Assembly (NCBI GenBank): GCA_973895155.1
Contig: OZ316896.1
Location: 3,386,738 to 3,450,737 of the forward strand
DNA: 64,000 nt
From: Marsupella aquatica
Lineage: Eukaryota > Plantae > Marchantiophyta
Direction: 5' to 3'
The notes below the pieces were generated by a model. The model was not told where the DNA came from and did not search any database. It was given only the letters and a program-made list of their open reading frames with translations. Positions within the stretch are counted from its first letter, which is position 1. Each line of letters starts with the position of its first letter. Position numbers and translations under genes: made by a program. Shown here one piece after another: positions 16,007 to 64,000 of this stretch.

Positions 16007-16147
16007 AATTTGTAAGCTTCACAAGACTGAGGCACTAGTTACTCCGACGAATGAAATTTGTAAGCTTCACAAGACTGAGGCACTAGTTACTCCGACGAAT
16101 GAAATTTGTAAGCTTCTCATTCACATTAAGTTACTCCTACGAATGAA
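16007..16147. repeat. 48-bp tandem repeat (two exact copies, one degenerate) upstream of the GTPase gene
   Basis: aatttgtaagcttcacaagactgaggcactagttactccgacgaatga at 16007 and 16055, variant at 16103. Confidence 0.9.
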
Positions 16148-16150
16148 ACC

Positions 16151-16168
16151 TAATGTATATATACATTA
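16151..16168. promoter_or_regulatory. Palindromic TATA-like element, candidate promoter of the minus-strand GTPase
   Basis: taatgtatatatacatta is a perfect 18-bp palindrome ~170 bp upstream of the ATG at 15983. Confidence 0.45.
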
Positions 16169-31700: not shown

Positions 31701-31751
31701 TAATCGGGTTTTCACCCTCAGCCTTACCTCCGGCCTCTGCCCGGGTTCCAT
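28662..31751 (-). CDS. LTR-encoded 1029-aa protein: basic N-terminus, plant-mobile/transposon-protein-like domain, long coiled coil
   Basis: Uninterrupted ORF wholly inside the LTR; ATG in gcaaccATGG context; GLEAFV...LLEFVGSW...IYGKDFYLTPKVIAEVFGLP resembles accessory ORFs of plant non-chromoviruses; long E/K/R/L-rich heptad region. Confidence 0.85.
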   Translation of the reverse strand: MEPGQRPEVRLRVKTRLGLGRVKRRRLGRINGKKDRQRRWVRSACRRWWLICEHELGRRLREANYCQLLRQALGERIDTDDRPKEGMSNVNQVAHFWGCLFERATEYIKTYEDEESERAARERQELARLWELQKTAFLGGELIKDEFLWTPTSNQLDDLLFCKDSVVGIREAIKNCNDIHWELKGSTERWTQATVLGETSTAAEMKRKGAVNDEATPAKRTRSAAPKRPAEQQSRRQGEAEEEEVDPIKAIPTRDDTWKGWAATLPVEVQLHFAREEDACFTAMQTKKYQGFMAGSGLEAFVRLPWLKPEVPESDLLEFVGSWEPETNCTRIYGKDFYLTPKVIAEVFGLPIGNKTKVDTRKTLPDKEFRSFPGPSTKNGFFRNTCTNPHIGEMIDFLRVTMHCNLPRAEIGKAQVYLAERLDPSRDYNGYLLNQLKKILKEEQQVISMGSVSRLGYHMPLLCRYARGQTFAPVLPLQVRAPEEAPTPRPLAEKPQPPVSPTIEQVFRPRKEDLPMQQPGMQSLLKLLEKEKKSASATTTATATMQDTTTEVGLHRLTRENPFAGDKARIRPESKPGVRMYVGTSSSESEAELPEAPTDEEEREKPDVQEVEEAVEDCSHDNSGYGSDHHVPGVRTCGRFVPTLPRVVRGDPNQQSSPESPPPDVAPPSFDGIKQTVQEFQERIKQEEEAALAKEKDLPGGDWPEDIRRLAKKGSKPLATIEEIRRTAWEQRPRWAMPITSTYSTYAKNRAMEYGEMCGELVLGIFGEELEVGPFFHREQLEKHQLEEAVALERSKKDEVIRRLRRMEAEIEDLRAAKKAQDELRIKRHELNIMQGQLDTAQADNQNIKDKLTQTQGELADTIKEREKWKRELKNTEEAHITANSRAMAETQRKEWALKGELKKIRGALEQKEVELGKSYQGIMALQQELASLTASFKADLREKDEMLEQTYAKMNQMESVIIAELDKELRATQEERATLKKELEEAHREQEEAKNELEGARKDLDEPKRSWRKSRGRWRTYSGGPTTK

Positions 31752-31854
31752 GGTTGCCCCTAATTGTTTATATTTTCCTTGTTTTGTCCCTATACTAAGG
31801 TGTTCCTAGGGTGCCTTCCTGCTTTACCCACTTAACCGGCCGAGTGATTCCTGT

Positions 31855-34800: not shown

Positions 34801-35118
34801 GACTAGCCGAGTCGGTCCCTTCCTTGGTGTCCATAGATTGTCCCCTTACCGGTCTATTCGGTTTTGAATTAGTGGTCGGCTCCCCTTCCTGCCTTGGCTC
34901 TGGATCGTGTCTGTCCATCTCATCCACTTCTTGCTCCTGAGAGTTAGGCCGCTGTGCTCTCTCGGCTTCTAATAGGGCCTCAATTTGTTCTGCCCTCGTA
35001 ATCGGCTTGTATGCCGATCCCTTGGTATTTAATTCCTTGCCGATGATCGATGGCGTTGTGGACCCCGTCGGCTCTGCCACAACGCCTGCAGAAAATCCAC
35101 TGTCCCTGCTACTGCTCC
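31855..35118 (-). pseudogene. Gypsy pol (RT, RNase H, integrase), disrupted
   Basis: DVFAWS, WVSPIVIVPKK, CQDYRKLN, MDGYSGYNQI, MPFGLCNAPA, FIDDF, DVSGFCIG, HHCC zinc finger, WGIDYIGP, SDRGTHF. In-frame TAG at 34183-34185; single-base frameshifts near 34690 and 35120. Confidence 0.93.
31867..31880 (-). promoter_or_regulatory. Polypurine tract
   Basis: AAGTGGGGAGCTA directly precedes the TG of the 3' LTR on the minus strand. Confidence 0.7.
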
Positions 35119-38022: not shown

Positions 38023-38069
38023 TACCTACGCTTCCGTTCTAACTTCATATCTCACGGCTTAAGAAATGC

Positions 38070-38087
38070 CCCCTCCATCTAGCGCCA
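38070..38087 (-). promoter_or_regulatory. Primer-binding site TGGCGCTAGATGGAGGGG
   Basis: Starts with TGG, 4 nt after the CA of the 5' LTR; cognate tRNA not determined. Confidence 0.8.
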
Positions 38088-38091
38088 AAAA

Positions 38092-41000: not shown

Positions 41001-42726
41001 TGCCGATGCCAATTTCTTTCCTTTCTCCAGTAGTTTTAGCAGACTCTGCATGCCTGGTTGCTGCATCGGCAAGTCTTCCTTCCTGGGCCTAAACACCTGC
41101 TCGATCGTAGGACTAACAGGTGGTTGAGGCTTCTCAGCCAACGGCCTCGGCGTTGGAGCTTCCTCGGGTGCCCTTACCTGCAGGGGAAGTACCGGGGCAA
41201 AAGTCTGACCTCTGGCATACCGGCACAACAGCGGCATGTGATAGCCAAGCCGCGACACGCTCCCCATGCTGATTACCTGCTGCTCCTCCTTTAAGATCTT
41301 CTTCAATTGGTTGAGGAGGTACCCGTTGTAGTCCCGGCTTGGGTCTGGCCTTTCTGCCAGATAGACCTGTGCCTTGCCGATCTCTGCCCTCGGCAAGTTA
41401 CAATGCATGGTCACCCGCAAGAAGTCGATCATCTCTCCTATGTGCGGGTTGGTGCAGGTGTTCCGGAAGAAGCCATTCTTTGTTGATGGCCCGGGGAATG
41501 ACCGGAACTCCTTGTCAGGCAAGGTCTTCCTGGTATCAACTTTGGTCTTATTGCCTATCGGCAAGCCAAACACCTCGGCAATTACCTTGGGAGTAAGATA
41601 GAAATCCTTCCCATATATCCTCGTGCAATTGGTCTCGGGTTCCCATGACCCCACGAATTCTAATAGGTCTGACTCCGGTACCTCCGGCTTCAGCCATGGT
41701 AATCTTACAAAGGCCTCCAAGCCGGATCCGGCCATGAAGCCTTGGTACTTCTTGGTCTGCATGGCCGTAAAGCATGCATCCTCCTCCCGTGCAAAATGTA
41801 GTTGCACCTCCACCGGTAGGGTTGCCGCCCAGCCCTTCCAGGTGTCATCCCTGGTTGGAATGGCCTTGATGGGATCGACCTCCTCCTCTTCGGCTTCTCC
41901 CTGCCTCCTGCTCTGCTGCTCGGCTGGCCTCTTTGGTGCCGCCGACCTCGTTCTTTTTGCCGGGGTGGCTTCATCGTTGACGGCCCCCTTCCTCTTCATC
42001 TCTGCTGCCGTGGAGGTTTCTCCTAGCACCGTTGCCTGGGTCCACCTTTCCGTGCTACCCTTTAATTCCCAGTGTATGTCGTTGCAGTTCTTGATGGCCT
42101 CTCGGATGCCGACGACGCTGTCTTTGCAAAACAGAAGATCGTCGAGTTGATTGGAAGTAGGCGTCCACAGGAACTCGTCCTTGATGAGTTCGCCTCCTAA
42201 GAAAGCCGTCTTCTGCAGCTCCCACAATCAAGCGAGCTCCTGCCGTTCTCGAGCTGCCCTTTCTGACTCCTCGTCCTCGTAAGTCTTGATGTACTCAGTT
42301 GCCCGTTCGAACAGGCATCCCCAGAAATGTGCCGCTTGATTGACGTTGCTCATACCCTCCTTAGGTCGATCATCGGTATCTATTCTCTCCCCGAGTGCTT
42401 GCCTAAGCAGCTGACAGTAGTTGGCCTCCCGTAGTCGTCTGCCTAGTTCGTGCTCGCAAATGAGCCACCATCTCCTGCAAGCGCTCCTTACCCCTCTCCT
42501 CTGCCGGTCCTTCTTCCCGTTGATCCTTCCTAGCCGCCGACGCTTAACGCGCCCTAACCCTAATCGGGTTTTCACCCTCAGCCTTACCTCCGGCCTCTGC
42601 CCGGGTTCCATGGTTGCCTCTAATTGTTTATATTTTCCTTGTTTTGTCCCTATACTAAGGTGTTCCTAGGGTGCCTTCCTGCTTTACCCACTTAACCGGC
42701 CGAGTGATTCCTGTCTAGGCATCACA
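38092..42726 (-). repeat. 5' LTR (4635 bp)
   Basis: Direct repeat of 27242-31866, followed on the plus strand by TSD CAATG. Confidence 0.95.
39013..42611 (-). pseudogene. 5'-LTR copy of the large ORF, split by one CGA>TGA nonsense change
   Basis: ORFs 42228-42611 and 39522-42227 are contiguous and in frame; cccacaatca here versus cccacaatcg in the 3' LTR. Confidence 0.9.
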
Positions 42727-44565: not shown

Positions 44566-47309
44566 CATTTTTACCGACCCCCATTAGGGGTCCTTTCCAG
44601 AATTCCAGGCTCCACATTGCACCACATCATCATGGCGACATTGGATAAAGTTGTAAGCATGACTTCCCACAACCTCTGAACCAAAACTTAGTTGGTATGA
44701 TGTAACTAACATGACACCCACAAACTTGGAGTCGCATATTTATGAAGGTCTCACACAAGTCACATAGGGGAGGGTCTCAGAATGGGTGGTTTTCTTCTAG
44801 TGATTTTGAATTTGTTGTCAAACATTGTTTGGGCAGGTTACAAAAGTCAATTCGTAAACTAAATCCAAAATTTGATACACGGTATCACTTTTGGTATGTG
44901 AAATGTTAAGCGTACTGTTGCTCATCATAAAAAATTTAGTTTTTGGTCAAAATCTTGATTTTGGAAACAATTGCAAAAATTTATCTAACACATTTTATTT
45001 TTCCAAATGTGAGTATTCTAGTCTATAGTCTCTCGCAAAAGATGACATCCAAATATTTTATTTCCAGATCATTAGTTTAGCTCCCAAAACGTCACTAGGC
45101 GCAATACAAAAACTGATCCATTTCTTAATTTTTTTCAAAAAAGCTTGTTTTAACAAAAAAACATGTTTTGTATCACCATTTTCTGCAAAATCTGAAGAGG
45201 CTTCTCGTTTGGTGGTCACACTTCTCGTTTGGTCTATCAACGTGTTTAAACCTATTAAGATAAACACCTGCATGTATATACTTAGAGTTACTCAATGCAT
45301 AGTATTTATTTGAATGAATGATCTTTTTCGTTGAATGATTCTATATCTTGTCATTAGAATGAATATTAGTTGGACGAAATATTTGATAGTACGATAATGC
45401 CTAGACCAGTACCTGTTCTTCCTCTCCCTAATCCTTTCCTTATTAGAATTCATATACTCCAAAAAGAGAAAATGCGTCAGCATATGATTTTTCACTTTGG
45501 AGAAGCATCTGCCGTGTTAAATTCAATAGAGCCACTTGTGTACCCTTATGTAGTTTATGGGCAGAATTGGGCTTGCACAAGTTTTATCTTGTATTGAGAT
45601 GGATTTCAACAAACCTCCCTCCGATGAACATCCTGTTTCTTTCTCGTTGAGAGATATTTGTTTTGTAACTCGACCCAAGGTAGTTGCCAAGGAGGCAATA
45701 GTCCGTAGGTTTGGAGAAAAGGGTTATGATGTTGTGCTTTCATCCACAGAACCATTCCCTGTGATGTCTGCTACCCAGTCTAGGATAGTAATCATGATCT
45801 TAACTTAAGTTCTCTCTTGACACTAGCAGCCATAGGCCAGGTGCTTCCTCAAGAACCACATTTTCCCCCCAGACAACGCCGAGACCAGAATGGCTCCGAC
45901 TATAGCAACCAACTCTCGTTTCTTGCCCCACTGATGGTCTAGGGGCCAAGTGCCCTTGGAACTCAGCCTCCACAACTACTTGGCCTTGCCTTCCCAACGC
46001 AAGCTCCCTAGCCTTGAGAGACTGAACGCGGCTTGGCTGCTATTTCAACAAGATTTGGCAAACTGTGGGCGAGATAGCCCCTACAAGCCCCGAGAACCTA
46101 TGGCACCCCTAGACCCAGTTGAGTTCAGGAGTATGTATTCATCCTTGAGAGCTTTCTAACGTACGCACCCAAGAAGTCCTTGGGGAAGTCCTCCAACAGA
46201 CTTTCCGTTGGAAAGTTATCGCCAATTTTGTTTGACATTTTCCCTTAGCATCACGACCACCGAGGCTCATGACTTTGGCTTGCCCTTAGCCCCCACCGTT
46301 CCCCTAATATACGCTTCTAGAGACTTGTCATCCCCGGACCAACTTTGGTCCCCAAATTTTGGCCCCCGACCTGGACCCAACCCGCATGTCTGGGCGCGCC
46401 ACCAACTAGCAATGCCCATAACTTTCTAGTTAGGCGTCCGCAAGCAGAGTGCCTTAGCCTGTTGTGATTGGGCCAACCTGGTGCTCATGCCTAGGCCCTC
46501 AGATCCCATCGTCGCCTTGGTCCCCGACCGGCCAAACCCGGATCAGACCATAACTTGCGCCTCAAGTGTCTGTTGCCCATGGATTCAACTCCATTGGCCT
46601 TGGGCCCAAGAGGAGCTCTCACTCAAGCCCTCAGAACTCACAGTCCGTTCAGAGTCAATCTTGAGCCCGACCCTTTCCCCTTGACCCATCCAGCCCTCAA
46701 CTAGTCCAAGTCCTTAGTGTGTGTCACCAGCTTAGCGCCTTGCTTTTGCCAATGCCACGCCCCATTGCCTACAAGTCTCCCCATGCTAAGTCCTCCCCAG
46801 ATGGCCTATCCAGGTCTGGCCCATAAGAGAGCAATGCGTTGGAGTCAGCAATTGTTAAGGTAGTCGAGTTATGCAACTAAATTCATGTTTGATTCAATAT
46901 AATTTCAAAAACATTGATACAATGTCCACAACAAGATCTTTATGTTCTTCTGCAACATCAGAGTGCAATAGCAGTGCACATTGCATATCTCACTCTGCTT
47001 ACACGGAGTTCAGTCAATTATCAGTCACGATAAACCAATCGTTTTTCCAGCAATTATGGCAAGATAGGCTACAAAGACAATGACTGCAAGTTGACTCCAA
47101 TTTTGTTCAAGATTCACAACCAATTTCTAGCTATCAAGGGGGGAGATTCATTCAATGCACTTTTGTCCCAACCTCCATTGGTGATGTTAGATGAAGAATT
47201 CCAACGCTGCCTCAATGAACCCTCCCCCAAGTAGCTTTCATACATTTCATGGAACTACAGGATGAGCTTTTGTTCCAGACCATCGTAATCAGTTTGATCT
47301 CTTCTTGCC

Positions 47310-47620
47310 TTGCACCAGGTCCACTTGCATCTACCAGTAGTGAGGATCAAGTCTCCTCAAGTCATGAAGCTACCTGTTAGGACAGAAACTGGAGGCAAAA
47401 TACCTGGTCAGGGCACCAATAGAAAGAGAGCTGCCAACACCGCCCCAATGAAGAAACCAAAGAAGGCTCAGAAGATTGTGCACTTGAGTGATGAAGAAGG
47501 CAATGGGGAAGATGGAACCTCAGTGAGTAGATGGGTAGACGCAGAAGTCAGCCACCTTATATTGTTCTGCTCAAAAATGGATGAGGAGTGTTCAACGAAT
47601 GCAAAGAAACAACGTCAGGT
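47310..47620 (+). pseudogene. Fragment of a Myb/SANT-like (trihelix-type) DNA-binding protein gene
   Basis: RWVDAEVSHLILFCSKMDEEC..NAKKQ after a basic KKPKK patch; upstream frame is broken. Confidence 0.45.
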
Positions 47621-49484
47621 TCTCTTCATCACTATATTCATTAAAACTGAAATTATAAAGGATATAGGGAAATTTGGCGATTTAAAAACATAGTTTTAGG
47701 CATGAATATTGTAAATTTGGAAGATGAAAAATGAAAATTCAAGCATCATTAAATGTAAATTTGGGGACAAAAAAATGAAATTTTGGGAAAGTAAAATATT
47801 AAATTGGATGATATTAAAAAACATTTGGGTGATAAAAGTGTTCATTTGGTTGGAAAATAGATAGAATCTAGTAATAACATATAAGCTTGGATAGCATCTA
47901 TATTCAAAACATTTAGCTTGAGTAAGATATCTAACTAAGCACCAATACAATGGAATGACTATAGTGTCTAGACAAAGTTAACTAGGATGATATCCAACCT
48001 ACTAGAAGGAATGAAATGGCATCATTTTCTAGAATTAAAATATACTAAGACAAATAAAATAATAATTATAAGAAAGTCCATTCAATAGCTTTGAGAGATC
48101 ATAGAGTATTAATTTGATTGTCTTGTTCTCTCACTTTAGACCAACGCATGGAAATCAACTCGACCCTCTTAATCACAAGTCATTTGAGTGGAGACTTGTA
48201 ACCTACGAGTTCTATCAATCTACTCATCAATTATACCTTCCATGTAAATTTTGAGAGTTTTCAAAACATTCTTAGGAATTGTCAAACCTCTATCCATAAT
48301 ATTTTGTTCTTTAGCACCTGACTTAAACCCATACATTGAAGAATTTGCAAACTGCCAACTTTGAGTAACATTGTCAAACCCAGGATCCAGCTCCCAAGTC
48401 TTAGTGGTTTGAAAGCAACGTTCATATCGAACATCATCCTTTGCATCATGCTTACCATGTTTAGGCCTCCACCATTGTACTTGGAACATAGGAGCATTCC
48501 TAAGAGGAATGCTCTCAACAGACATTGAAGAAGACCCTTCAATATGTTGCAAATCTGTTGAGGGAACCTCATGGTTTGGATCCACACCACCCAAAGCTCG
48601 AACCAACCAGAAACGCCATTTTCCATTTTCCTGTTCCCATTCATCCTCTGGACGTAAAAATACAAAGTGACCTTCTTGAATATCTTGTAGAGGAATCCAA
48701 CGTGCAGGTTCTCGCTCTTGTCGTGCACCAACAAAGGGTGCAGCTTGATCTTCCATCTCTTCCATGTACTCATTTTGAAGGTCCATCATCTCTGGATTTT
48801 GAGAAGGTTCACTTGACGGTTGAGATGTCCCCAAAATCATCTTGTAACCTATGCCATGGTTAGTCTTTGGCCAAAAATTAGTTGTCAATGGCAAATGTCT
48901 TTCCCCCTCCCCTTCTATTGTAAGTTCCTCGGACAGTGCTTGCACAAGATTCTCCCAATATTTGACCAGAGGAAATCTCTCTTTATATGCTGCAGAGGTC
49001 TCATCCTTACAACTTTTCTTCAAGAAATCAATATAGCGATTAAGGAATGGGATGATTTCTCCAGCCTTCTTTTGTACATCCCCAGATATAGGTTTTGCAA
49101 ATGGTTGGCCTTCCGGTAAAATGAGCGCATTTGTGATGGGATTAGTTCTCCAAATGGACCTCCCCATTGTCGGAAGCCAAGGTTGCTTGACATGTGCTTT
49201 ATATTGATACACTGGCACATTATCCCTCATGGAGAAAAGAAATGCCACTGGTTTTGAGTGACCTTCTATCTCTTTCACCTGGAAAGTTTTCAAATACTCC
49301 TTGTAAGATGCAACCTCTTGAATCAATCGTGGTACAGGATGAATGCTTTCACACTCCCAAACCTCAGCCATCAACCCCAAGAGGGAAGCAACCTCTTTGT
49401 ATCTGACCTGTTTGGATACTTGAGAAAATAATGCATCCACGTCTTCATGGGTGTGGCCAACCATGAGGAATGACATTTGCACAG

Positions 49485-51529
49485 TGTAGTATTGCACTAA
49501 GGACATAAATCAACATTTAATGTCCAAAACTCGGTATTCGATCCCATGGAAGAACAAGAAAGGAATGATTTTTTATCATTTAACACTTATGAATGATTAA
49601 GGTAACAAAAACACAGGTTTGAGCCTTTTACTATGATTGCCCAGCAAGGCATAGATTTGAATGTTTGCTTAACATTGTAAATGCAATTAATAAAATGGAA
49701 ACAAATAACAAAACACAATGAAATCTTGAGGTATGATGAGGGAGTCTGGAAAACACCAAGGTAACTTCTCATCAATACTTCATTTGATGTGATTTGGGTG
49801 GTATATCCGTAAGAACATTTTTGGAATGGATTACTGTACTAGGATGATTACTAAAATGCCGTCAACACGTCTCAACTTTTCCTTCCAAAGGTACTCAGAA
49901 GAAACTAGTAATCAATCACTTCGATATCCAGTCGGTACTCTGAGTCACGAATAATAAACACCATCATGATCAAATTGAAGTCACAGGTAATTGGTGAGTA
50001 ACAATCTTTGCATCCGTGCACAAGCAATGTCACGCCAAAAATTATGCATCAAGAACTCAAGAAGATGGGTTGTCACCACTTAAGGAATCTATTCCCTCAT
50101 ACTTCTGAGATTCAACTTCATACAAGTAATTTTACTTCAATGATCTAAACTCTCAATCATTCAGACCAAGGAAGGGAGAAGAATTCCTTTGTATTTGCAA
50201 GCTCCATACCATACGAAAACACACGGAAGCTTTGCAAAGGTGATTACAGTACTGCAGCACATGCCACAGGCACTACTTTATTTCTTCACACTTGAAAATG
50301 ACACAAATTCTACTTCATATAGGCTAGCAAGAACCCAAGGAGACTGAGATACTGAAAGGATATGCCCTTTCATATCTAAAGGGTCTTGAATAAACTTAAT
50401 GACGGTCATCCTTGAAAAGTGAATGGACACTGCTGAAAGTGTCGAAAATGCAGGGGACGCTTCAGAAAGCGTCGAGGTTTGAGCGGACGCTTTGCAAAGC
50501 GTCGGTGTTTGCGGTAAAACTAATAAACAGTGATTTTAATCTAATTTTAACTTCTAAACTAAGAGTTGGAATGAGTTGAAACTTTTCTAGGGTACTCTAC
50601 TACATATAGTCTATATGCTGGCAAAGTTTCAGACTTTTCTGAGACTTCTAAGTGCCTCAAATAAATCGGTAAAAGTGGCGCGGTGTTATAAAAGTGCGAA
50701 AACTGAAAAATTTTCTAAGTGTCGGGAACATAGTGGACGCTTCAGAAAGCGTCCAAAACTACAAATGACTTTTATGGACGCTTCAGAAAGCGTCGGCTGA
50801 ATTTTGAGGTTTTGGTCGCAGCGTCCATTTTCTGGGCTCCGGGCGGGACGCTTCAGTGGGCGTCACAGTGTCGAGGTCACCTTCGGGGTAGCAGACGCTT
50901 CTGTGGGCGTCGCTCCTCATGTGGATTGCAGAGCGTCAGAGTACAACTGGTTGGGTGGTGGACGCTTCAGAAAGCGTCGTGGTCTTTGGGTGGACGCTTC
51001 TCAAAGCGTCCAAAAATACAAAGGACTTTTCTCAAAGCGTCGGCGAAGTCGCGGCTATGTAAAAAAATAGCTAAACTAAAATAATTTTAACTTTCAAACC
51101 ACATGTCGGTTTGAGATGAAACTTTCAAGGATGATTCTACTACGTAACTACTAATGCCTGAAAAATTATGAGACTTTTCTGACCACTTTAGCTATTTAAC
51201 TAAAATAGCAAAGATCGGTTGATTGTGATAATTGCATAGAGAGCTCATTCTTGCTGAAGAAGTGTTTTGGAGTCCGGTTCTTGAATCTTCTAGTCTGCAT
51301 TGCTTCTCCAATGATGTCCAGTCTTCTTTCTTGGTAGCATGTAAAGAGCAAGGATTTATATTGGCGATCCTTGTCCAATATAGGCAATAGCCTCCGATGA
51401 AGCATAACATTAGGTAAAGTGTTCGGTTGATCTAAATTGCTACAAAAGGTAACTAGATTGTACCTTGAGTTAGAAAAAGTTTAAAATTTATAAAATTTCC
51501 ATCATTTCTAACTAATGTACAGCATTACA
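49485..51529. mobile_element. Solo LTR (2045 bp) inserted in the transposase
   Basis: TGTAGTATTGCAC...GTACAGCATTACA, flanked by TSD CACAG (49480-49484, 51530-51534); removing it with one TSD restores the frame exactly. Confidence 0.92.
50455..51042. repeat. Dispersed palindromic motif GACGCTT(CAGA)AAGCGTC, about 8-10 copies inside the solo LTR
   Basis: Copies near 50456, 50486, 50737, 50777, 50847, 50894, 50961 and 50993. Confidence 0.85.
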
Positions 51530-53730
51530 CACAGTTTCAAACACCCCCCTGCTAACAAGCTCAGTGCAAAATGCCATCACATATTGATTTTTGTTATCTT
51601 TCCCTGAATTGTCCATCTGCAACGTTAGGTGCCTTGGTAAGGGCTTGAAAGAGCCCCTAGTAGTCTCAGGATCATCCTTAGAACCAACATCCACTGTGCT
51701 TGACTTTTTAGTCTCCTGACCATCTTCAATGCCTTGAAATCGAACAATTGAAACATTTTTGGGTTCCAAGTAACCGGCCAGAAATGCTTCAAAGTCTAGA
51801 AGGGACTGAAATATTGGCCTAGTTGCATTCCAATTCAATCCCTCAAGAAGGTCTCCAGTTTTGTCTCCTGTGTAATCGTCCAAATCTCGGAGGCATTTGG
51901 CCAAAGATGTCACGGTAAAGTCTGCATCTCCAGGCCAAAGTCCAGTCAAACTGAAATGTGCATACACTCCAGGATCTCTTCCATGGGTTAACATCCCAGT
52001 AAGAGCAATAGGCAAAGGCTGACCACTACCAGAGAGGGATTTTGGAGTGGGGACCAACCTGGGGATCCAAGTCTTGGCTTGATCCATCTTATCGTGAATA
52101 ATGCAAAGATAGTTTTGAGGATCCTTCTTTGCAAGAACCCTATGAGCATAGTAAACATATCTTCTTGACATTTGTTCACGAAGATGTCGCGCTCTTTTCT
52201 CTTCAATCTCTGCACGCTCTTTTTTTCTCTTCTCCCGCATCAATTGATCTTTGAACTCAGTGCAAAATGTGCACTTGGCAAATGCACTTCCCTTGTGAAA
52301 GTCAAAATTATCAAATGAGTTTTTCCAGATGTTGTACATAGTAACTTCAGTAACCTTAGCAAACCCATCTAATTCCATCTTGGTAAACACCTCTTGGAAA
52401 ATCTCCTTCTTAGTAAAACAAGATGGGAGCCGATATTCAATAGTGTCAGTGCCGTTGGACCCACCATAGGGAAGATGTGGCATTGGTTCCCCATTTTGGA
52501 TTAAAATGGACTCCAACAAGGCGCGAGCGTGCAAAGTGCTTGATCGTGTCTTCCGTTGTCCCTGATTTCCATGGAAACCAATTGTGCAACCAGCTTCGTA
52601 TTGATTTTTGTAGTCATAGTACTTTGTTGTACTGAACCCATGCATTTTAATAAATGCATCTTTACAAACCACACGTCCCTTTAGAACAAAAAATCCCTTT
52701 CTCTTGACTTGCTCCTCTCTACACCCAAAGAGACTAAAGATGTGACTTGTTTTGTTGTCACTTGACATTCCATGGTATTTCCTCCTCATTGCCTCTAAGT
52801 CCTCCCTGGGCATGTTCAAGCAACACTTCAGCTTGCAACAACCTTCTCTTTGGATGAAATCAATGGACTCCTCGTTAATTTTCAAAAGTGCCCTCGACTC
52901 CAAATGCCTTTTCTTCCTCTCCTCAAGATCAACTTTTGTCCTCCTAATGAAATTGTATGGTCTTTTTGTAGGTTTACCATCACCATCCGAATCCGGATCG
53001 CCCTTAGTTCGACCCGACTCCATCCACTTCTCTGAAACTTCCTCAAGGATATCCCCAAGAAACCTTTGAGATGAAATCAATAGAAGGGATTTGATTTCCC
53101 ACCTCACCAAGCCAGGGGTACCAACACGGATATTTGGAAATAATCCGGGTTCATTGATATTCACAACAGCAACACCAACATGATCTGCACCAAGAAGTTC
53201 ATCGTCAACGGCACCTGTTTCAAATGGGACCGTGATAACACTTGTTGCAACCTTTCGACAACGAGAAGCGTCATACAAATCAACCTCCTCCGCCATCCAG
53301 TTGGAACGTAGTGTAAAATCTTTTAATGGAAGATCATTGAAAATATTTGAACTACCAAACACGCCAAAATCTCGAAGAGTGCCCTTTCTAGAAACATGCG
53401 CAACATCCCAGATAACCCAGGTATGCAAGGCCTCTGCTATTGTATCAGCTCCAGGGTGCGAGTATGGCAATTTTTGATTTCCCTTAACAATATCAGATAT
53501 TCTTATACTGATGCGACCAACCCCGAGTGTTTCAATATGACAAATATCCATCGGATTTGTCTTGAAAACAACTCCATTTGCAACCAACTGATCAAAAATG
53601 AACATCTGAACTTCATCTCCTTCCTTGAACACGTCCTCTTCAACCCTTGCATCAATTTTGGATTTATCATTTCCAACATCTCCAGCCAAAGAGAAATCAT
53701 CGACATTGTGTGACGCCGATGACATGGTCC

Positions 53731-56066
53731 TTATTCAATAATACAATGGAATTGGTATGCTATGCACAGTAAGTAACTGTGAGACTATAGAAGGATCAAC
53801 GAGATGGCAAGAATAAGGGCAATCATATGTCGCGGGTGGTCGGCGACCGTATCTCTTTCAATGTGTCGCCAAATCCGGATCTATAAAGAGCATTGGAAAG
53901 ATCTGGTCAAGGCGAGTAAAATTGATATAAAACACTCAGGAAACGGAGGTGTATTAAGAAAGATACGGCCTGGTTAGTGTGTCAGGTTAACTTGTGGCCG
54001 GAATTAGCGGGTTTGGCTTTGGTTTTGGGTTAACCTAGGCTTGGCCACGGCTTAGCTTGGGTCAGCTCGGCTTCAGCTTAGGCTTAGCCCAAGTTTGGGT
54101 TAGCCTGACCTCGGGCCCGGGTTAGGATAGGTCAGCTCAGGTTTGGGCTCAGACTAGCAGACTAGCGGCTAGCAGACTAGCAGACTAGCGGCTAGCAGAC
54201 TAGCGGCTCGCAGACTAGCGGCTCCCAGACTAGCGGCTAGCAGACTAGCAGACTAGCGGCTCGCAGACTAGCGGCTCGCAGACTAGCAGACTAGCGGATA
54301 GCAGACTAGCGGACTAGCAAATTAGCCAGAGGCCACGGGTTAGCTCTACTCGGGCTAGATAGGATAGCTTGGTTAGCCAAACTCGGGTTAGCTATGTAAC
54401 TCGGGTTAGCGCAATAGTGCGTACCCCCTCTCGGTTGCGGGGGCATAACTTTCTCTGTATTTGCCCAAATCGGCTATAATTGACCTCATTGGAAAGAGGA
54501 GCTCAAGCCGCTTCCAACTCTGCTACCCACGCAGCAAATGGTTGAATAGAGAAATCGGGAGAGGAGGCGCAAGCTCGCGAAAACCATGGAGGAGGGCCAA
54601 ATCCGAAGTACATAGTCAGTTTGAGATAGAAATAAAGTTGCGAGTTAGGGTTTAGTAGTTAGATATAGTGGCGGCTCTGTTAGGGCTAGGATGGGGTGCC
54701 AACAACGTAGCATCCACCCATTTGGGCTTAGTGTGAGAGTATATAGGGTAGCCCCCCGGTAGAGGTAGGGGGGGACTTCAGTTGTGTGATCTCACGTAGA
54801 CTGAGCATCAGGGAGGAGCTCTGTGCAAGCAAGGCTGGACTTGGACGTCGTGTGTTGGGGAGAGCTAGGTTGTGCTATTACTCAGGGAGTAATCAGCCAA
54901 GCTTCACAGCAACGGTTTGCCAGGTTTGCGAGCTGGATTGTGGCTCTTTCTAGTGGGCAGCACAATTGGGTTCTTTTCCCCCGATACATAGCCTTGGTGA
55001 TAGGCGACATATTGGTGATTGTAAACTGTGGGGAGGATTTTGATTGCATTTACGATGAGCACAGTAGGGAGGCTGAGACACTGATCGAGGTGCAGCAGGA
55101 GGAGCATTTACAGTTCAGTTTGGCAAGGCTACGTGATCCATGGGGAGTCCCGGCCTTTGTCTGGTAGAGAGCACTAAGGGATTTATGGCCAGAGCTGAGC
55201 TTGCAGGGCAAGCATGAGGCCGGGCCTCATTGCAGTCTGGGGTAGATCGCCGTTAGGCCTGGTACCAGCTTTGAAGTCGAGTCAACTATGCATGCGTAAC
55301 TTGACATTCTGAAATGGAGGTGTGAGATCTGTATGTGCCCCCAAGAATGAAGTGCAGTGAAGGAGGTTGAGTTCAGGATTGAGTTTGCAAGGCAAGTACG
55401 GGATTGGTTCGAGTCCAATCTGCCGTCGCAATCTGGAGTGAGCCAGGCTTAGGTTCAGGATTGAGCTTGCATGGCAAGCACGGGGCTTGCGGGGCAAGCA
55501 CGTCGCAATCTGGAGTAGACAACCTTTGGGACTATTGTTCGAATCAAGTGTTCTCAGTGAACTATTGTGCACATCGTTGAAACTAATTGAGTTTTCCTCT
55601 CAGGCCTCATTTCTCTCATGGATGTGTGTGTGTGTGAGACAATCTGAGTGTATGATGGGACTAGCGGCGCCACTGAGAGGTGTACCGGGTGCATTGAAGT
55701 GGGTTGGGTGAGGGCTGTCATAACTCTGATTGCTGGGAGTGGAATGGCAGAGTGGTGGGGCAATGGCTTAGAAGTCCCTAAGCCGGGAATCAGTCAGAGT
55801 CACTAGTTTATGGGTACATTCCGGCGGCGGAATAGAAACATACCTATGGCAGTAAGCATACGTATAGACATATGCGCACCGTAGCGCTAGGCCCTGTGTG
55901 TACGGGCCCGACATGAAGACCCCCTTCTCACCAGAACTATCATGAGTGCAAGAGCTGATTCCCAACCTTGGTCCTTGGGGATTGAGCTTGGGTGATGTGT
56001 GACAGAGTCTTGCTATGATAGTCTGGCGTTAAGGGGATAAACCGGTGTATACCAGCCTTCACAACA
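53731..56066 (+). mobile_element. Truncated LTR retrotransposon remnant: short internal 3' piece plus LTR 53950-56066
   Basis: PPT-like AGGAAACGGAGG then TGTATT...CACAACA; right flank TCCCT, left flank TCC(T). Joining the flanks restores gacatggtccctccgtg and the transposase frame. Confidence 0.7.
54151..54320. repeat. AGACTAGC / GGCTAGC 7-8-bp tandem array
   Basis: About 20 alternating units inside the LTR remnant. Confidence 0.9.
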
Positions 56067-56572
56067 TCCCTCCGTGATCCTCAGGTACAAGGAGATAGTT
56101 TTGGCACCCAATAGTGACAGCTTTGGTGTCAAGACCCAATGTCAACCGCTTGACACATTGATTCTTCGGCGCTGAGTTGATGACCTCAAGTATGCCAATG
56201 CACAATCCCAAATCACGCAGGAGTCAATTGCCTCAGCCAATGTAGAAAATTTGGGCAAAGGAAATGGAAGTTGACGCGATCCATCAAAACACTTTTCGAT
56301 CAATACCCCAATTCGATTGTCCCCTAGACAAATGTTCTGTATAGTATCCTGGGGGTCAACCTTTTGAACTATCCCAATTGCCGTTTCAAATCCATCGATC
56401 ACCAATGACACTTCATCCCCTCGTGTAAAATTGATCATGATAGCGGACTATCTGTATTCAAATAAAGTTAGAAATTGTTAAGTTCCCCATGTTACAATCA
56501 TGTTTCAAAATCTGGACTCTCCTCCAAAAAATATTGTAAAATCACTCAAAACCCTAAATATATTCAAGTCAT

Positions 56573-56895
56573 GTCGGAATTATTTCGACCCTCCTCCAAC
56601 ATTATGTCTTGAAATGATTGAATTGACTAAACATTTACAAGTCGGGTCGGAATTATTTCGACCCTCCTCCAACAATATGTCTTGAAATGATTGAATTGAC
56701 TAAACATTTACAAGTTGGGTCGGAATTATTTCGACCCTCCTCCAACAATATGTCTTAAAATGATTGAATTGACTAAACATTTACAAGTCGGGTCGGAATT
56801 ATTTCGACCCTCCTCCAACAATATGTCTTAAAATGATTTAATTGACTAAACATTGATAAGTTGGGTCGGAATTATTTCGACCCTACTCCAACTAT
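56573..56895. repeat. 73-bp tandem repeat, ~4.5 copies, upstream of the transposase
   Basis: gtcgggtcggaattatttcgaccctcctccaacaatatgtctt.aaatgattgaattgactaaacatttacaa; inverted core aataattccgaccc at ~56998-57011. Confidence 0.92.
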
Positions 56896-58055
56896 TAAGT
56901 TGAAATTATGTCAAAACTATTTGTGAAACTATCTTGCTTATGCTTTTATATACCAATTTAAAATGCTAGTTAAGATGACATAGTCAGGTCGGCACAAAAT
57001 AATTCCGACCCACTTCTAGAAACTATGTTAGTAATCACATAAAGGGGTACAGTAAGTTCTACACATGCTAGACTGTGGATAAAGGTCTAGAATGAGTAAA
57101 ATATATGATCTAGAACCTAATGTGTAAATCTTAATCTAGGTTTGGCTTAAAGGTATTGAATTAGATGTAGTTGAGCTAGTACTTCTAAGATAAATAAATA
57201 AAAACACTAACCTGCTCCGCAATATATCTCTGTCCACCCTTGTACAAGCTAAATGGGTACCTTGGATGCCAGCATTGTAACTCTTAGCACCACAGTGCTC
57301 ACCAGTGCCCTTACTAAACCTTGCATTCAACCATGCGGACCTAAACAAGGCACTCGGACAGAGGAGAGTCAGTGATCGTACCAATCACTATCTAAATGAC
57401 AATGAACCAAAAAATGGATTGTGGGAGGTCTATACTCAGTTTGAGAGGCAAAAAGCCCACATATTACCCAGCACACGAGTGGACACCAACAGATCGGGCA
57501 CGGGTGGATGAGGCACGCACCCAGCACACAAGTAGACATCGGATAGGGTGTCAGCCAATCACTCACGAGTGATAGGTGAGTTGCAAGCACACACCGCTGA
57601 CAGCTCGGAAGTTTAAAATTGGTAGGTGAGTCGCGAGTGGTCGTGAGTGGTCACACCATCGGTGACTCACGATCACATGCACCGAGGAGGGTCTCCATCA
57701 TTGGCGCGCATTGATGCCTCCGTACCCTCTTGGATCCTTGCCTCCTCGGACTCCTCGCTCGCAGGGGGTATAGGAAGGCAGGCCTTGCGCTTGAGGCCTC
57801 ATTTCCTTGCCTCCCTCTTGCCTCCTCTCTCGTCTCCTCACTCCTTGCCTCCCTCTTGCCTCGCTCTAGGGCTTTTGTTTTTGCCTCGCTCTTGGGATTT
57901 GTTTTCTGCCTCGCTCTAAGGCTTTTATTTCCGCCTTGCTCCCTTCCCTTTTGGGTCGCTCCCTCGATCATTGTTTGCCTGTTAGTGCCCTCTTGCAGCC
58001 TGTGGCATTCTCCATTGCTGCCATGTGTCATCTTAAATCTCACTCGCCCCTTACA

Positions 58056-61000
58056 ATGTCTACTTCCTCCAGTTCTGAAGCTTCCACCACCTCCGCCAGT
58101 TCTCAAGAGTCATTGAACTTCAATTATAACTCTCTGTATGAATATGACCGTGAAGACCCGGATGTCCAAAAATTGGTTAACAATGCGTTGGAGGCGTCAA
58201 AGAAAGCCCAGTTAACTTTTCCACGTAAGGCACCACCTGCTTCAACTTCTTGCCTCGCCCTTAGGGCGAGGCAACTTTACTTTAATTTGGATTTCAAACT
58301 TCTTATTAGGAAAATTTCTATATTCCTTTGCAGTCGCCTCGCCCCAAGGTCGAGGCGACGTCTACTTCATTCTAGATTTCTTGTTGCTCCGAAGGCGTAT
58401 TGGACCTTCTATCTTACATTAATAAAGGATCTTTAGCTATATTCTATTTTTTGCCTCGCTCTTGGGGCGAGGCGATGTTGTTTGCATTCCTCAAATGTAG
58501 TCTGCATTCCCAGAAGTTGCCTCGCCCTTGGGGCGAGGCGATGTTATCTGCATTCCTAAATGTTGTCTGCATTCCCAGAAGTTGCCTCGCCCTTGGGGCG
58601 AGGCGATGTCCTCTACATTCCTAAATGTTGTCTGCTTTCCCAGAAGTTGCCTCGCCCTTGGGGCGAGGCGATGTCCTCTGCATTCCTAAATGTTGTCTGC
58701 ATTCCTAAATGTTGTTTGCTTTCCTAGAAGTTGCCTCGCCCCAAGGGCGAGGCGATGTCGTCTGCATTCCTAAATAATGTTTGATTGCTTGGATGAGGTG
58801 GCAGGGCTAATTGCACTAGGAGCAAAGAAGATTTTGCAATCTTCTATTTGTCGCCTCGCCCCAAGGGCGAGGCACCTTGAAAGTTTTCCACATGTCAATG
58901 TTAAAAATATGATGCTGACCATTTTGTTTTCAATGTTTCTTACCAGGAAAAAATCTTGAGAAGCCGGAGTTAAATATTATGGACGAGGATATCAAGGACT
59001 TTGTTTTCCCTGACCAAGATACTCCAGGATTTAGATGGGCACTAGAAGTTGGGGTGTCGGCGGAAGGCAGTCTCTTGATTTGTTTCAAGGGCCTCACAAG
59101 TCAATTGAATGACCGCAAGACAATTGTTACTCTAGGTCCAGTCGTCCTTGTGAACACGGACAACAACCGCAATGCAACGATTATTGTTGAGTCCAATGAG
59201 AAATCTCAATGGATGAGACTTCTAGTGCCAATAAAACTCTACTCGACTTTACTGAATGTTGAGTGGATGGCTCGATTGGAGATAAGCGTAGCTGATATGG
59301 GATTCTTCCCAGATGGAGTAACAATTGATCAGATGTTTGAGAAGACGCGTTCTCAAATAAGTGGAGTTGACCTAGTGTTTGGATTTCTCTACGTAAAGAA
59401 GCACATGCATGACAATGCGGACAGTGTGGACCCTTCGTCTACTTGGATAGTTCAAAGGATGATTGATAAGGCACATTTTTCATACGAGCAAGCAATCGAC
59501 AAGAGTTTCATTTTTTGTCCAGAGTTTCAAGAGGCCGCGTGCCGGACGTGGATTTCAGAGATGAAGAAAAAAGAAGCAAAGCATAAGGCAAAGGAGAGAA
59601 AGAAGACAGTGGAAAGAAGTGCGCAATCAAAGACAGAGAAGAAACGAAAGCTTCAAGAGCCGGTTGTTCAACAAGAGAAACAATCTGGGAGTTCACGCCG
59701 TAAGAAGATGGCTAAAAAAAATGAAGATGATGAGGGCCCCCAAAAAAAGCAGACAAAGAAGGCAAAGGTTGCGAAATCAAAACCAATGTCAGGGTTGACT
59801 TCAAACTTTGTCTTGCATCCAGAGGATGATATGTGTCCGACAGAAGGACCCAAAGAAGATGATGTGCTCAAAGGCCAAGAGGTTTTGCGTAATATTGAGC
59901 AGTATTATACTTTTGGCATCCGCGAAGTTTTTGATATTCCTGTAAAAAGTATTAATCCTCCATTGGCCGTTTTTGTATATCGAATGTTCAATCTTTCGCA
60001 TGCAATGGAGATATCAAAGTCTATGATGAAAAACCCTGGACAGGAACCACAAGTTGCTGATTTGATTCCGTATCGTGAGAGCACTAAACAGTTGCTTCAT
60101 TATGACAACACACCTCAGGATAGGAAAGAGTTTTTGATTGGTGTGAGGAAGCATGAGATCCAATTCCTTGCCATCAGTGGCCAGCATTCTGCAAGAGCTG
60201 CCCAATGGATCCAAGGGTGGGCCGAGACTGACGCCAAGCTGACAGATCTTGCCAACAAACTAAAGTATAGGAAAGCAAGGATCCTATCTGACCTCACTCC
60301 GAAGACAATTTTGGTTGAGCATTCAAGTTTATCGAATGCTGTCAATGATACTATGCAATTTAAGTCTTGTTTTTTAGAGACTATTGTTCATGCACGAAGG
60401 CAGTTTGAGGAGTGCGAGAAACCGCCGCGTCCAGGGATTGGGACCAATCAAAATACAAACAGGAAAAACTATCAGGTACATGTTGGAGCAACGCAAACTA
60501 TTCTTGATCCGCTTTGTTTAAAGATTGTCAATGGTAGAGGTTTGCCTCGCCCCAAGGGCGAGGCTGCCTTTTCTTGTTTTCCTTGGTTAGAAGATTAAAG
60601 CAAATGTTTGCCTCGCCCTCAGGGCGAGGCAACCTAGACTAGTCTCTCTAAGAATAATTCCCTAGTTCCGTTTCAGTCAATTGCGGTTAGATGTAGAGGT
60701 TCGCCACGCCCTTGGGGCGAGGTGGCTTAGCCTGTTTCAAACATAGGTATAAATTTTCTAACATATGCATTGTACCCTGAAACTAATGTCAAGTCCATTG
60801 GATATGCAGGATTGGTTTGCCCTGGCAAAGGTTACAATGGGGAAGTCAAGCCTAAAGAGCATTTATTGGTTACTTTTTGCCGAAGATGAGCTCTTTGAAT
60901 TATGGCGGAACGTGTGTGCAAAATGGTTGAGTGGGAAGCTCCAAGACGGGGCTGGTGGGTATGGAGGGCCAAGACCCCCAAAATTGATCACTCCCGATAC

Positions 61001-63079
61001 CTTTCGATGCTTTGAAGGAGAGATTAGTAGCAAACAGATAATTGAGATCTTGAAGGACGTTGAAGAGGAGCGTGTCTTGCTGAAGAAGGATATCACCAAC
61101 AAATCAGAGCTTGTCGCAATGGGAGACTTGGCCCTTACAATCAAGATAATGTCCAAATTGAGAACAGTCATTATTGGCTATTTCGTGGAAAAGTATCGTG
61201 AGAAGTTTCCTGTTGGCACATCTTGGGAGTCTCTGGTGATATTGTTGCCTTCCTTGAAATCTGAGCTTGAGATGACAAAATTGAGGAGAGCAGCGGGTGA
61301 GGTTTACCTCAACAATTCATTGAAGAAGAATGTGGTCAAGGAGAGTTTCCCACAAAGTCTGATGGTCAGACTAGATGGGTTGTATTGTAAAGAATTTGGT
61401 GGGATTGGTCGTTCTCGCACGGAGCCTTTCTTGACATTTTTAGTGAGAATTTGATGAAGACGACCGTGCCGGAAATGCTACAAGAGCCTTCGCCTTTGTG
61501 TCCTCTTGCCATTGTTGACTTCAGTAGGCTCCGACAACATGTTTGGACCGATGCTGAAATTATTGCATTACTGCAATACATTGTGGATCTTCCAAGAAAT
61601 CCAACAATTGTTGTTGTCATGATTGTGCATCCGGGGCCACTTGCTGCAAACATTTTGAGTGCCCTTAGGAAATTGCAACATGAAAAGGGAATGGACATCC
61701 ACGTCGACTACGGGAGCTATCGACGGAGTGATACACCAGTTCCAGAGGGCTTACTTTTCAGTTGTGGTATGGAGGAGATAATCTTTGCAGGAATCACCAC
61801 TGAGGAGAAATTTGATTGGAAGCAAGTGTTCAGGCCTGGATTTAATTGCCAATTTTCTTACAATTTGGCGATCGACCCTGATTTCCAAGTGGAAGACAAG
61901 ACGGAGAAGCGAGATAAGAATAAGAGTAAGACAAGTAAGGAGACAGAGACTGAGTCAACTTCGGCATTTCACATTGGAGATTTCTTACGAAAGGCTCCCA
62001 TGTTTGAGATGGTGGGAAGTAGAGGTGGCTTTGTGAATATTCACGCTAAGCCAAAATGTATGCTGCAGAGTATTATTGAATTTTTTTCGGCTGAAGGGGA
62101 GACTATACTTGACTTTTTCTCGGGAGGACAGGTTATGAAGGTGTCATTGTTGTGTTTCAGAGAATGCTTTGCGTATTCAGACACTGAGGATGAATATGAT
62201 TTCACTCAGGCATATGGAAGGGTTCTCTGCGAGAAAGTTCCTTCCATAATGAGTGATCGGATGGGCGGTTCCAAATTTGGTAGAGCCCGTGATGGGGTTT
62301 CCGCGCATGTTGGTGCCAAAGAAGGCGTAGACCAGGGCAAAGATGATATTGAGGAAGGAGAATTGGGTCACGACAGGGTCACCCGAAATTTGGATGAACT
62401 TGGAACACAAGTGGTAGGTATTCCCTACTTTGGTGTGGGGTTGGCTGATGTTGTGGGTCGACCTGAGGGTGACCCACCAAGAAATCCCTTTGCCGGTGTA
62501 GAGAATTGGATGCACCAATCGGACCCAGATCTTACATCGTCCACATCGGACGCACATTGGAAGGCAACCGCAGATGGTCTAGGCAATATTGACGCAGTAG
62601 AATTGGGAGAAATGTCAGACATTGCGCTTGCAAAGGAGGATGATCGTCAAGTACCTGAGACCGCTGCAAATGAAGAAGAGAAGGCAGGTGCTTCAAATCC
62701 TCCCCTGTCTCCTCTATATTGCTCATCAGAGACTAAATTGGTTTTTACAAGTGCTTCTACAGGAAGCCCCATAGTATTATCATTTTCACAAAATTCTGGA
62801 TCCGAGATCGGTAGGACTGGATATATGAAAACAGTCCGTCCTGCAACTCATTTTATATGGAGAAATGGACCAAAGGTTGGAATGATAGAATCACTAGACG
62901 ATGCTCCAAAGATAATGGCAAAATCAGATTACAAAAAACTGAACTTGAGACTGAGCCCAGTTTTTGCACCCCCATCCTTTGAAGAGCAACTTCCCAGTGG
63001 TATCAATTCCGAGATACAAAGTGTTCTAGGTGATCAAACAATAGATGAATTTGGGCATTTTAGCATTGGAAATTATTAG
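58056..63079 (+). CDS. Spliced ~1320-aa protein: ParB/Srx-like domain plus degenerate beta-class N4C/N6A DNA methyltransferase domain (exons 58056-58224, 58947-60475, 60810-63079; one T-run frameshift near 61440)
   Basis: Both GT-AG introns join in phase (CCAC|gtaagg...accag|GA; TATCAG|gtacat...atgcag|GAT). Motifs FDIPVKSI, FLAISGQHSARAA, then LAIVDFSR, MEEIIFAG, VNIHAKPKCMLQSIIEFFSAEGETILDFFSGG. Confidence 0.75.
58251..60724. repeat. About 11 hairpin motifs TGCCTCGCCC-NNN-GGGCGAGGC confined to the two introns
   Basis: Copies at ~58251, 58335, 58453, 58518, 58583, 58648, 58732, 58851 (partly in a 65-bp tandem unit) and ~60543, 60609, 60702. Confidence 0.9.
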
Positions 63080-63121: not shown

Positions 63122-64000
63122 TGTTATAACCCATAATATGACTTAACCCTAGTATAGGATAGGTTAACATTAACCCAACCATGTTAACCCTTCTGGACTA
63201 TATAAGTCCTTGGCATAATGGAAGTGAGTGGGGATTATTGACTACTATCATCTTGTGTATTCATAACACGTTATCAGCGCGACTTGCTCAATTACATTTT
63301 TTTTACATGTGCTCCCTCCCCAAAATCTGACAACTCAATAGATCGAGGTCCACACAAAGAAAACAACACAATGTTGTGTGTTTTTTGCTCTAATGGCGAG
63401 AATAACCGCCTAACTACCTCCCGAGAATAGAGAAAACAAGCTTATGATCGAAGAACAAAGAACTGGCCATAGAGCGTCGAGCCTAATCACGAGCGAAGAT
63501 TCTCAACCTTGAACGAAGGAGACAACGCGACGAGACGCGAAAAACAAAATAAAAGACATTGGCGAAAACTGAAAACTTTGAGGACCGCACACAAGGACAT
63601 ACGAACGAACTCCATCGGGGACAATTTGGATGCGATTCAAGGGGCAGATGAGTCCCGTGCCTTGAGCGAAAGGATCGCTATCGTTTCTCTTTCTTTTGGT
63701 TAACTTGATCCATCACAACAGCCGATCGATCGGGCGGGACAAGGCGAAAGTCATAGGCATTTGATACAAAGGAACACCATATATTTATAAGGCCCAAAAT
63801 CAGGCGAAATAGACATGGCGACATTGGAGAAGTTACATTTCCCAACCCTACTAGTAGACGGCAGCAACTACTTGACATGGGCCGTAGATGCGGAAACATA
63901 CTTCGCATCGTTGGAGCTTGAAGATACATTAATCACAGACCAAAATCTGACTCTACAACAGAAGGCCAAGGCCGTGTTCCTTTTGCGCCAGCACTTGGTT
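63122..64000 (+). mobile_element. 5' end of a Bianca-lineage Ty1/copia element (LTR 63122-63268, PBS 63269-63281)
   Basis: TGTTAT...ATAACA 147-bp LTR with TATATAAG, followed by CGTTATCAGCGCG (half-tRNA-Ile-type PBS characteristic of Bianca). Confidence 0.85.
63815..64000 (+). CDS. Bianca-type gag N-terminus (runs off the window)
   Basis: Translates MATLEKLHFPTLLVDGSNYLTWAVDAETYFASLELEDTL...QKAKAVFLLRQHLV, matching the Bianca gag pattern (KL.F..L...G.NYL.W..DAE). Confidence 0.85.
   Translation, partial: MATLEKLHFPTLLVDGSNYLTWAVDAETYFASLELEDTLITDQNLTLQQKAKAVFLLRQHLV

Follow-up and report, generated by a model that had tools for sequence, protein, structure and literature searches.

Sola1-1_Ec32, a 21.5-kb Sola1-type transposon of Ectocarpus, carries on the strand opposite to its transposase an accessory gene whose 1104-amino-acid (aa) product joins a ParB-like domain to an N4-cytosine/N6-adenine (N4C/N6A) methyltransferase domain, and in the available excerpts of the source this protein is proposed to bind and modify the element's own sequence (PMC12477816). 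Here we analysed 64,000 nucleotides from the liverwort Marsupella aquatica (contig OZ316896.1, positions 3,386,738 to 3,450,737; this whole stretch is called the window), which contain a transposase gene and, in divergent orientation, a second gene (gene 2) of a similar description. We consider it reasonably probable that this feature belongs to a repeated cut-and-paste transposon, likely of the Sola1 type, of which the window holds a dead copy, and in which gene 2 encodes a ParB fold joined to a methyltransferase fold without its catalytic motif, its product likely being a palindrome binder rather than a DNA methylator. The likeness to Sola1-1_Ec32, as far as the excerpts go, lies in an accessory gene opposite to the transposase with ParB-like and N4/N6 methyltransferase domains, and is a match by description; the difference is that Sola1-1_Ec32 belongs to a brown alga and has the termini AACCG-CGGTT, whereas the left end of the liverwort element reads CACTATATTC. 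In the liverwort element the catalytic motif is absent and palindromes fill the introns of the accessory gene. The first-pass annotation of the window had taken Sola elements to be essentially transposase-only, a view contradicted by Sola1-1_Ec32, where a gene of this kind lies opposite to the transposase (PMC12477816, in the part available).

Another precedent are the Plavaka elements of Bostrychia (PAG2/PAG3), in which, according to the accessible text, a ParB-like accessory protein is encoded beside inverted-repeat tandem arrays, the cassette includes an N6-adenine methylase-like gene, and self-binding has been proposed (bioRxiv 2025.02.11.637652). The ParB-like protein adjoining inverted-repeat arrays is shared with the liverwort element, while the Bostrychia transposase is of the EnSpm/Plavaka type and the genes are separate, one fusing ParB with a 2-oxoglutarate (2OG) oxygenase and another fusing the methylase with a SET domain. 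The portion available of PMC4738411 mentions algal methylases linked to ParB and, for DIRS1 elements, methylase domains that are likely inactive. The beta-class N4C/N6A methyltransferases (M.RsrI, CcrM, M.MboIIA, PvuII and the bdelloid N4CMT) and MpDN4MT1a/b share fold and motif order with gene 2. They differ from it in that the beta-class enzymes, in the sections seen of the two sources, have (D/S)PPY (PMC10406627, bioRxiv 2021.02.12.428880), a motif that the ParB-fused gene 2 family lacks. The Marchantia MpDN4MT1 enzymes carry TSPPY in the same partial source, and the absence of such a motif from the gene 2 family speaks against the earlier suggestion that elements of this kind were a vehicle for the methylases of early land plants (bioRxiv 2021.02.12.428880). 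With bacterial ParB, Noc and KorB, gene 2 has in common palindromes in cis and, in structure models, a ParB/Srx fold on the N-terminal side with helices after it; its nucleotide-binding patch, however, reads SGQHS. VANDAL elements of eudicots, of the Mutator superfamily, are likewise DNA transposons with an accessory protein, VANC, considered to target the sequence of its own element; VANC is unrelated to the gene 2 protein, and its function has been shown by experiment, where that of gene 2 is predicted.

The literature found, whose coverage was incomplete and did not extend to Repbase entries, describes no element of this sort for land plants, although one may exist. What is new here is the land-plant lineage, the lost catalytic motif and the intronic palindromes; the two-gene layout has already been published for algae.

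Extent of the element and its transposase gene

The transposase gene, which occupies 56438 to 48220 of the minus strand (Table 1), is interrupted by two long terminal repeats (LTRs). The two insertions had been noticed before and described as nested; both lie in the transposase gene, as separate solo LTRs that are not nested in each other. When LTR 1 was excised in silico an open frame of 1151 aa was obtained, from 53725 to 48220, which showed 35-45% identity over ~1100 aa to seven of the 12 homologs compared and contained all three acidic motifs of a DDD-type enzyme, HDKMDQ, QMDNS and GHTHEDVD, whose catalytic role is predicted from the sequence. The separate 98-codon piece aligned with the first of two tandem N-terminal domains in full-length homologs (P0123, 46% identity, E 4e-26; P0100, E 5e-16), and the whole transposase would be ~1240-1280 aa long, close to the ~1270 aa first estimated. 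We provisionally take DUF7869 to correspond to Sola1 on the basis of its motifs, Pfam itself naming only DUF7869. A CACTA motif is present at the one end found and the end of a distant family reads CACAT; a Tnp2-type transposase, that is the Transposase_21 family of CACTA/EnSpm elements, was not found in the Pfam scan at E ≤1. Solo LTR 2 has no clean target site duplication (TSD; GTAAC / ACATC), and in a paralog contig devoid of it, 508 different letters stand between 53335 and 56284. Solo LTR 1 has a palindromic repeat of its own, GACGCT-N6-AGCGTC, in nine copies at 50424-51042.

The left end of the element was placed at 47630, where it reads CACTATATTCATTAA, by a step in contig depth and by similarity to the end of a distant family. 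In four of four runs depth was at flank level at 46910-47479 and had risen steeply by 47670, the step between 47479 and 47670 being from 22-99 to 952 in run X1 and from 260-361 to 22564 in run X3, and contigs of a diverged subfamily start at 47628. In a distant, AT-rich family of transposases, whose end was mapped independently, four loci part company immediately past ...AAATATGTG, and the reverse complement of this end reached its top score solely at 47627-47630 among the 42482 30-mers of window positions 42730-64000. An inverted copy of the left terminus was not found in the window at ≤3 mismatches in 17 nt, and the stretch separating the two genes yielded no second terminus in the same kind of scan. 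The left flank of the element is TCAT, the other flank lying outside the window; for Sola1 a TSD of 4 bp, AWWT, is given in the text available of PMC3845634, and Sola terminal inverted repeats span 11-1124 bp in that of PMC10741241. On the right, a copia insertion begins at 63122 and a contig of run X5 runs beyond this point with 158 different letters, so the right end lies outside the window. The first-pass annotation had found no termini; the left one exists, 590 bp outside the interval it had delimited, and its placing of the right end beyond the copia insertion holds. Without the solo LTRs, the visible element measures 11156 bp. The window copy is dead, with two solo LTRs and a frameshift.

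Left ends near 45200 or 44100 were ruled out by the flank-level depth over 46910-47479. A separate, very abundant repeat at 45200-46870, left of the element, has the highest depth in the flank and terminus profile. The element is inserted 11 bp after a likely splice donor in a decayed plus-strand open reading frame (ORF; 47298-47693) with no Pfam match, which presumably resembles Myb/SANT-like proteins. Loci L001-L009 represent a distant family of DUF8039+DUF7869 transposases, in which a 75-bp array precedes the transposase gene and the end reads CACATATTTCATTAA, with TAA or AAA as its flank.

Depth was read from contigs of public runs, the stretch being present in seven runs from five studies and four organisms, with at least half of its words in three runs. 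In run X1, six contigs covering 47679-62576 (terminal region, transposase, intergenic region and gene 2) had depths of 523, 509, 517, 421, 474 and 480, against 17-23 for five near-exact contigs of the flanks. Binned depth stayed above flank level between the genes, with continuous cover, and dropped to it just left of 47630. This even, high depth from the terminus to gene 2, compared with the flanks, suggests that both genes were likely amplified as one unit, and we hold it very probable that they travel within one pair of termini.

Gene 2, its protein and the palindromes

The start codon of gene 2 (58056, plus strand) lies 1617 bp from that of the transposase (56438, minus strand), and its product, with two GT-AG introns at 58225-58946 and 60476-60809, is 1322 aa long; a divergent pair ~1.6 kb apart with a ~1320-aa spliced gene, as annotated at first, is thus what was found. 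At the site matching the intron 2 donor, [FYW]xV was present in 34 of the 43 homolog ORFs that end shortly past the ParB domain, in a check for which the anchor motif was available in 52 of 81 homolog hits, and this donor is, by such sequence comparison, old. A 1-nt frameshift interrupts gene 2 near 61437, where other copies have one extra base. An intron at 61367-61443 was ruled out, since no splice choice preserves the frame and the Riccia homologs align across the site.

Gene 2 is itself repeated. Its homologs form 81 clusters at 50% identity, with at least 24 dispersed models in Riccia sorocarpa and others in Calypogeia and Diphasiastrum, and together with the high relative depth this is not the picture of a single-copy syntenic host gene, the outcome named at the outset as fatal to a transposon. 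Pointing to mobility elsewhere, Riccia models on different chromosome-size contigs were 95-96% identical (P0089/P0098, P0094/P0098), and the Riccia copies were spread over three separate groups in a quick tree, from which a coverage and span filter had removed 35 of 93 domain hits. The nearest named relatives of both proteins are from the liverworts Calypogeia fissa and Riccia sorocarpa. Scans of viral_contigs and metagenome_contigs confirmed no gene 2 locus, and a long-protein search with P0003 gave no match at E 0.001 among 4482 candidates. One Riccia model, P0147 (R1sor_025532), extends from the ParB-methyltransferase part into a domain called FCP1-like in the source, hinting at a possible third passenger gene past the right edge of the window.

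Exon 2 ends in a 225-aa domain that was modelled with a predicted local distance difference test (pLDDT) score of 89.5; its top Foldseek matches were Noc, ParB, PadC and sulfiredoxin, and KorB was matched as well. In the VIA search the top eight matches of this model were all of the ParB/Srx type, the best with Z 7.8, middling when taken alone (root-mean-square deviation, rmsd, 3.4; 98 residues aligned), and the same fold was recovered from the model of a Riccia homolog with Z 9.1 (rmsd 2.0, 93 aligned). By these models, gene 2 carries an N-terminal fold of the ParB/Srx superfamily. The C-terminal domain matched Pfam N6_N4_Mtase weakly at E 0.0027, short of the cut-off, and a nine-sequence family profile including the window protein reached M.RsrI at E 3.3e-05. 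The model of the Riccia homolog P0090 (mean pLDDT 76.7) matched beta-class methyltransferases, best CcrM (Z 13.8, rmsd 4.3, 207 aligned), and on this modelling the gene 2 family has a beta-class N4/N6 methyltransferase fold and motif order. No relevant match came from PDB sequence searches, whether the query was the single protein or one of the alignments A1 and A5; PHROGs gave at most weak methyltransferase matches (E 0.05-0.08) and NCBIfam none for the domain. Folds and high relative depth together bear out the original idea of a repeated, cargo-carrying DNA transposon with a ParB and methyltransferase-fold gene.

The SPPY/DPPY motif holds and stacks the target base in N4CMT and CcrM, according to the part available of PMC10406627. 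This catalytic motif IV, (D/N/S)PP(Y/F/W), was found in none of 12 family members (the window protein and 11 Riccia proteins). Motif I reads DxFSGG in all nine sequences that reach it, one residue shorter than DFFAGSG of RsrI and without G-x-G spacing. At the likely position of motif IV, placed by motif order and secondary structure, the strand ends in the model in D-[LF]-[TSI]. The absence of motif IV from 12 of 12 sequences and the shortened motif I point to a pseudo-enzyme, and the methyltransferase domain is, judging from its sequence, probably inactive.

GC-rich 9-3-9 palindromes with ≤1 mismatch numbered 14 in the 64 kb, and 14 of 14 were in the element, four of them in the 73-bp array ahead of the transposase and ten in the introns of gene 2. 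The array units bear the palindrome GGGTCGGAA-TTA-TTTCGACCC in four good copies and one degenerate copy; the array and intron types differ, yet they have G..TCG-N..-CGA..C in common. The first-pass annotation had placed palindromes between the genes along with the 73-bp array. The array is there, as are degenerate half-sites, while the strong palindromes are found within gene 2, in its two introns. Their position beside and inside a gene with a ParB fold makes them candidate parS-like sites, and suggests that they may act as such. The palindrome-pair pattern was not found in viral_contigs.

Proposed function and competing explanations

In the mechanism that we propose, a DDD transposase would have moved the whole two-gene unit through cut-and-paste transposition, and the product of the accessory gene would bind the palindromes of its own element, regulating or protecting it; the methyltransferase fold may have been retained as a structural or reading module, for dimerisation or for reading DNA or methylated bases. 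The window copy was later struck by three LTR elements and one frameshift. We put at about even the chance that the accessory protein recognises the 9-3-9 palindromes in the manner of ParB at parS, with these consequences for the element and this use of the dead fold. A broader version, which we think rather unlikely, would place in early-diverging land plants, liverworts included, an old and diverse Sola-type line with ParB-parS self-recognition, whose protein loads, spreads and shields the element from host silencing while the dead methyltransferase serves as a reader. CpG observed/expected ratios, in which codon use was uncontrolled, were 0.43 for the transposase, 0.62 for gene 2 and 0.62-0.79 for four neighbouring LTR regions, and with that same limit the CpG content of the two genes gave no sign of protection from 5-methylcytosine.

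Several points weigh against a single unit with a palindrome-binding accessory protein. Contig depth is not copy number, and X1 may be the source of the window or a close sample. Neither a second complete copy nor a contig bridging both genes was seen in the runs, and the partner gene was found at none of 41 metagenome loci with related transposases, at five of which (four distinct) the 10 kb upstream were covered. At L003, with a related transposase and a similar 75-bp array, neither the partner nor an inverted terminus lay within 10 kb; since L003 has no inverted end, the ends may be asymmetric, and the lack of a terminus between the two genes then weighs less. In Riccia, one of 24 gene 2 models was ≤3 locus tags from one of 41 sampled transposase models (expected 0.26, p 0.23). 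As for the terminus, the score threshold of the scan was that of the 47627-47630 site itself. The methyltransferase model is that of a Riccia homolog, with pLDDT ~50-70 near motif IV, and was compared at the level of the fold; 11 of the 12 sequences in the motif-tested set come from one genome. Finally, the transposase could be the palindrome binder instead. Linkage of the two genes therefore appears likely but not universal among related transposases: it agrees with the depth in X1, and no second locus directly shows both genes.

In an explanation that we judge unlikely, the element is one and its methyltransferase fold dead, but the palindromes would be sites for the transposase or else small repeats that were inserted, and the accessory protein would act otherwise, for example as a chromatin or transposase partner. 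This explanation would account for the array lying 116 bp ahead of the transposase start and for the 75-bp upstream array of the related family without a visible partner; moreover, SGQHS stands in the place of the arginine patch of ParB, G-E-R-R, another point in its favour. However, ten of the 14 palindromes are inside gene 2, distant from the known end, the palindromic character of the other family's 75-bp array is not established, and the Bostrychia precedent argues for the accessory protein.

Quite unlikely, in our estimate, is that the element is one and its accessory protein an active, non-canonical N4C/N6A methyltransferase marking the element's DNA, as proposed for Sola1-1_Ec32. The fold and an H..K motif X region are retained, and conservation over ~25% identity extends to D-x-F-S-G-G and to the Asp where motif IV is likely placed, all of which would suit an enzyme. 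PP(Y/F/W), on the other hand, occurs in 0 of 12, motif I is shortened, and the next strand ends in S/T/R/A/N with no conserved acid. With the catalytic motif absent in 12 of 12, the suggestion that the second gene may mark its own DNA finds no support. Lastly, we regard it as very improbable that two separate repeats meet here, one an element with a transposase alone and the other an independent mobile element with the ParB gene, whether they are neighbours or one sits within the other. Two repeats would fit the 41 loci without partner, the Riccia locus tags (1/24, p 0.23) and the lack of a bridging contig. Against them stand the X1 depth, which matches from the terminus through gene 2 with continuous cover, the finding of no terminus in the intergenic region, the 1.6-kb head-to-head spacing of the genes and the same layout in Ectocarpus.

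Under the favoured reading of one unit with a palindrome-binding pseudo-enzyme, a ParB-methyltransferase accessory gene, so far proposed in algal transposons from domain labels alone, is extended to land plants, and the examined sequences have lost the enzyme motif, the gene itself being retained across deep divergence. Concrete candidate binding sites can now be named, which makes the function of the accessory protein testable in a liverwort model, and the gene 2 family drops out as an obvious source of active plant N4-methylcytosine methylases. If self-shielding were true, it would be a second anti-silencing system in plants, unrelated to that of VANDAL, and would offer a programmable eukaryotic ParB clamp.

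Feature coordinates and the rest of the window

Table 1. Positions of the parts of the element and of the sequences inserted in it (window coordinates)
Feature	Position	Strand	Basis
Left terminus (CACTATATTCATTAAAACTG...), 3' of transposase	47630..47660	+	Depth step, subfamily contig starts, end-similarity scan
Transposase 3' part, GHTHEDVD motif and C-terminal region	48220..49484	-	Pfam DUF7869 E 4.6e-20; in frame with 5' part after LTR removal
Solo LTR 1 (TG...CA, TSD CACAG) inside transposase core, foreign to element	49485..51529	.	Junctions; LTR-free joined form in runs X1, X3
Main 5' part of transposase, with a second DUF8039-like domain, a Cys-rich region and the motifs HDKMDQ and QMDNS	51535..53725	-	Pfam DUF7869 E 3.9e-16
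Solo LTR 2 (TGTGA...TCACA) in 5' region of transposase gene, foreign to element	53778..56063	.	Sequence; depth far above that of the genes
Transposase start, first DUF8039-like domain, 98 codons	56145..56438	-	BLASTP to homolog N-termini
73-bp tandem array, 4.6 copies, 94% matches	56554..56892	.	Tandem Repeats Finder (TRF) score 580
25-bp repeats ahead of gene 2, containing GCCTCGC half-sites in degenerate form	57856..57941	.	
Gene 2 exon 1	58056..58224	+	Predicted solely from ATG, GT donor and phase fitting exon 2
Gene 2 intron 1, 8 palindromes GCCTCGCCC-NNN-GGGCGAGGC	58225..58946	+	Palindrome scan
Gene 2 exon 2: N-terminal domain, Lys-rich linker, ParB/Srx-fold domain (~59850-60420, motif SGQHS)	58947..60475	+	Structure model, fold matches
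Gene 2 intron 2, 3 palindromes (2 at ≤1 mismatch, 1 degenerate), donor site kept across family	60476..60809	+	
Gene 2 exon 3, encoding a helical region, a beta-class methyltransferase fold that lacks catalytic motif IV, and an acidic tail	60810..63079	+	Profile, homolog model, motif scan
Copia-type LTR retrotransposon start, interrupting element 42 bp past gene 2 stop codon, foreign to element	63122..64000	+	LTR start (TGTTAT...) and end

The window as a whole is plant-like DNA rich in LTR elements. A Gypsy element at 27242-42726 has 4.6-kb LTRs that are 99.2% identical and the TSD CAATG, and each of these LTRs holds a long minus-strand open frame with no Pfam match (28662-31805, 1047 aa; 39522-42227, 901 aa), an ORF of that length inside an LTR being unusual. 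A third copy of the Gypsy LTR was recognised by comparing 1-3727 with 27171-31866 (98.9% identical, with a ~1-kb internal deletion); 71 bp of flanking sequence are common to both places, which points to a local duplication and not to a fresh insertion. Other features are a copia element with short LTRs at 8149-13173, two AIG1-type GTPase frames on opposite strands at 15210-18770 and a MAM33 exon at 25541-25900.

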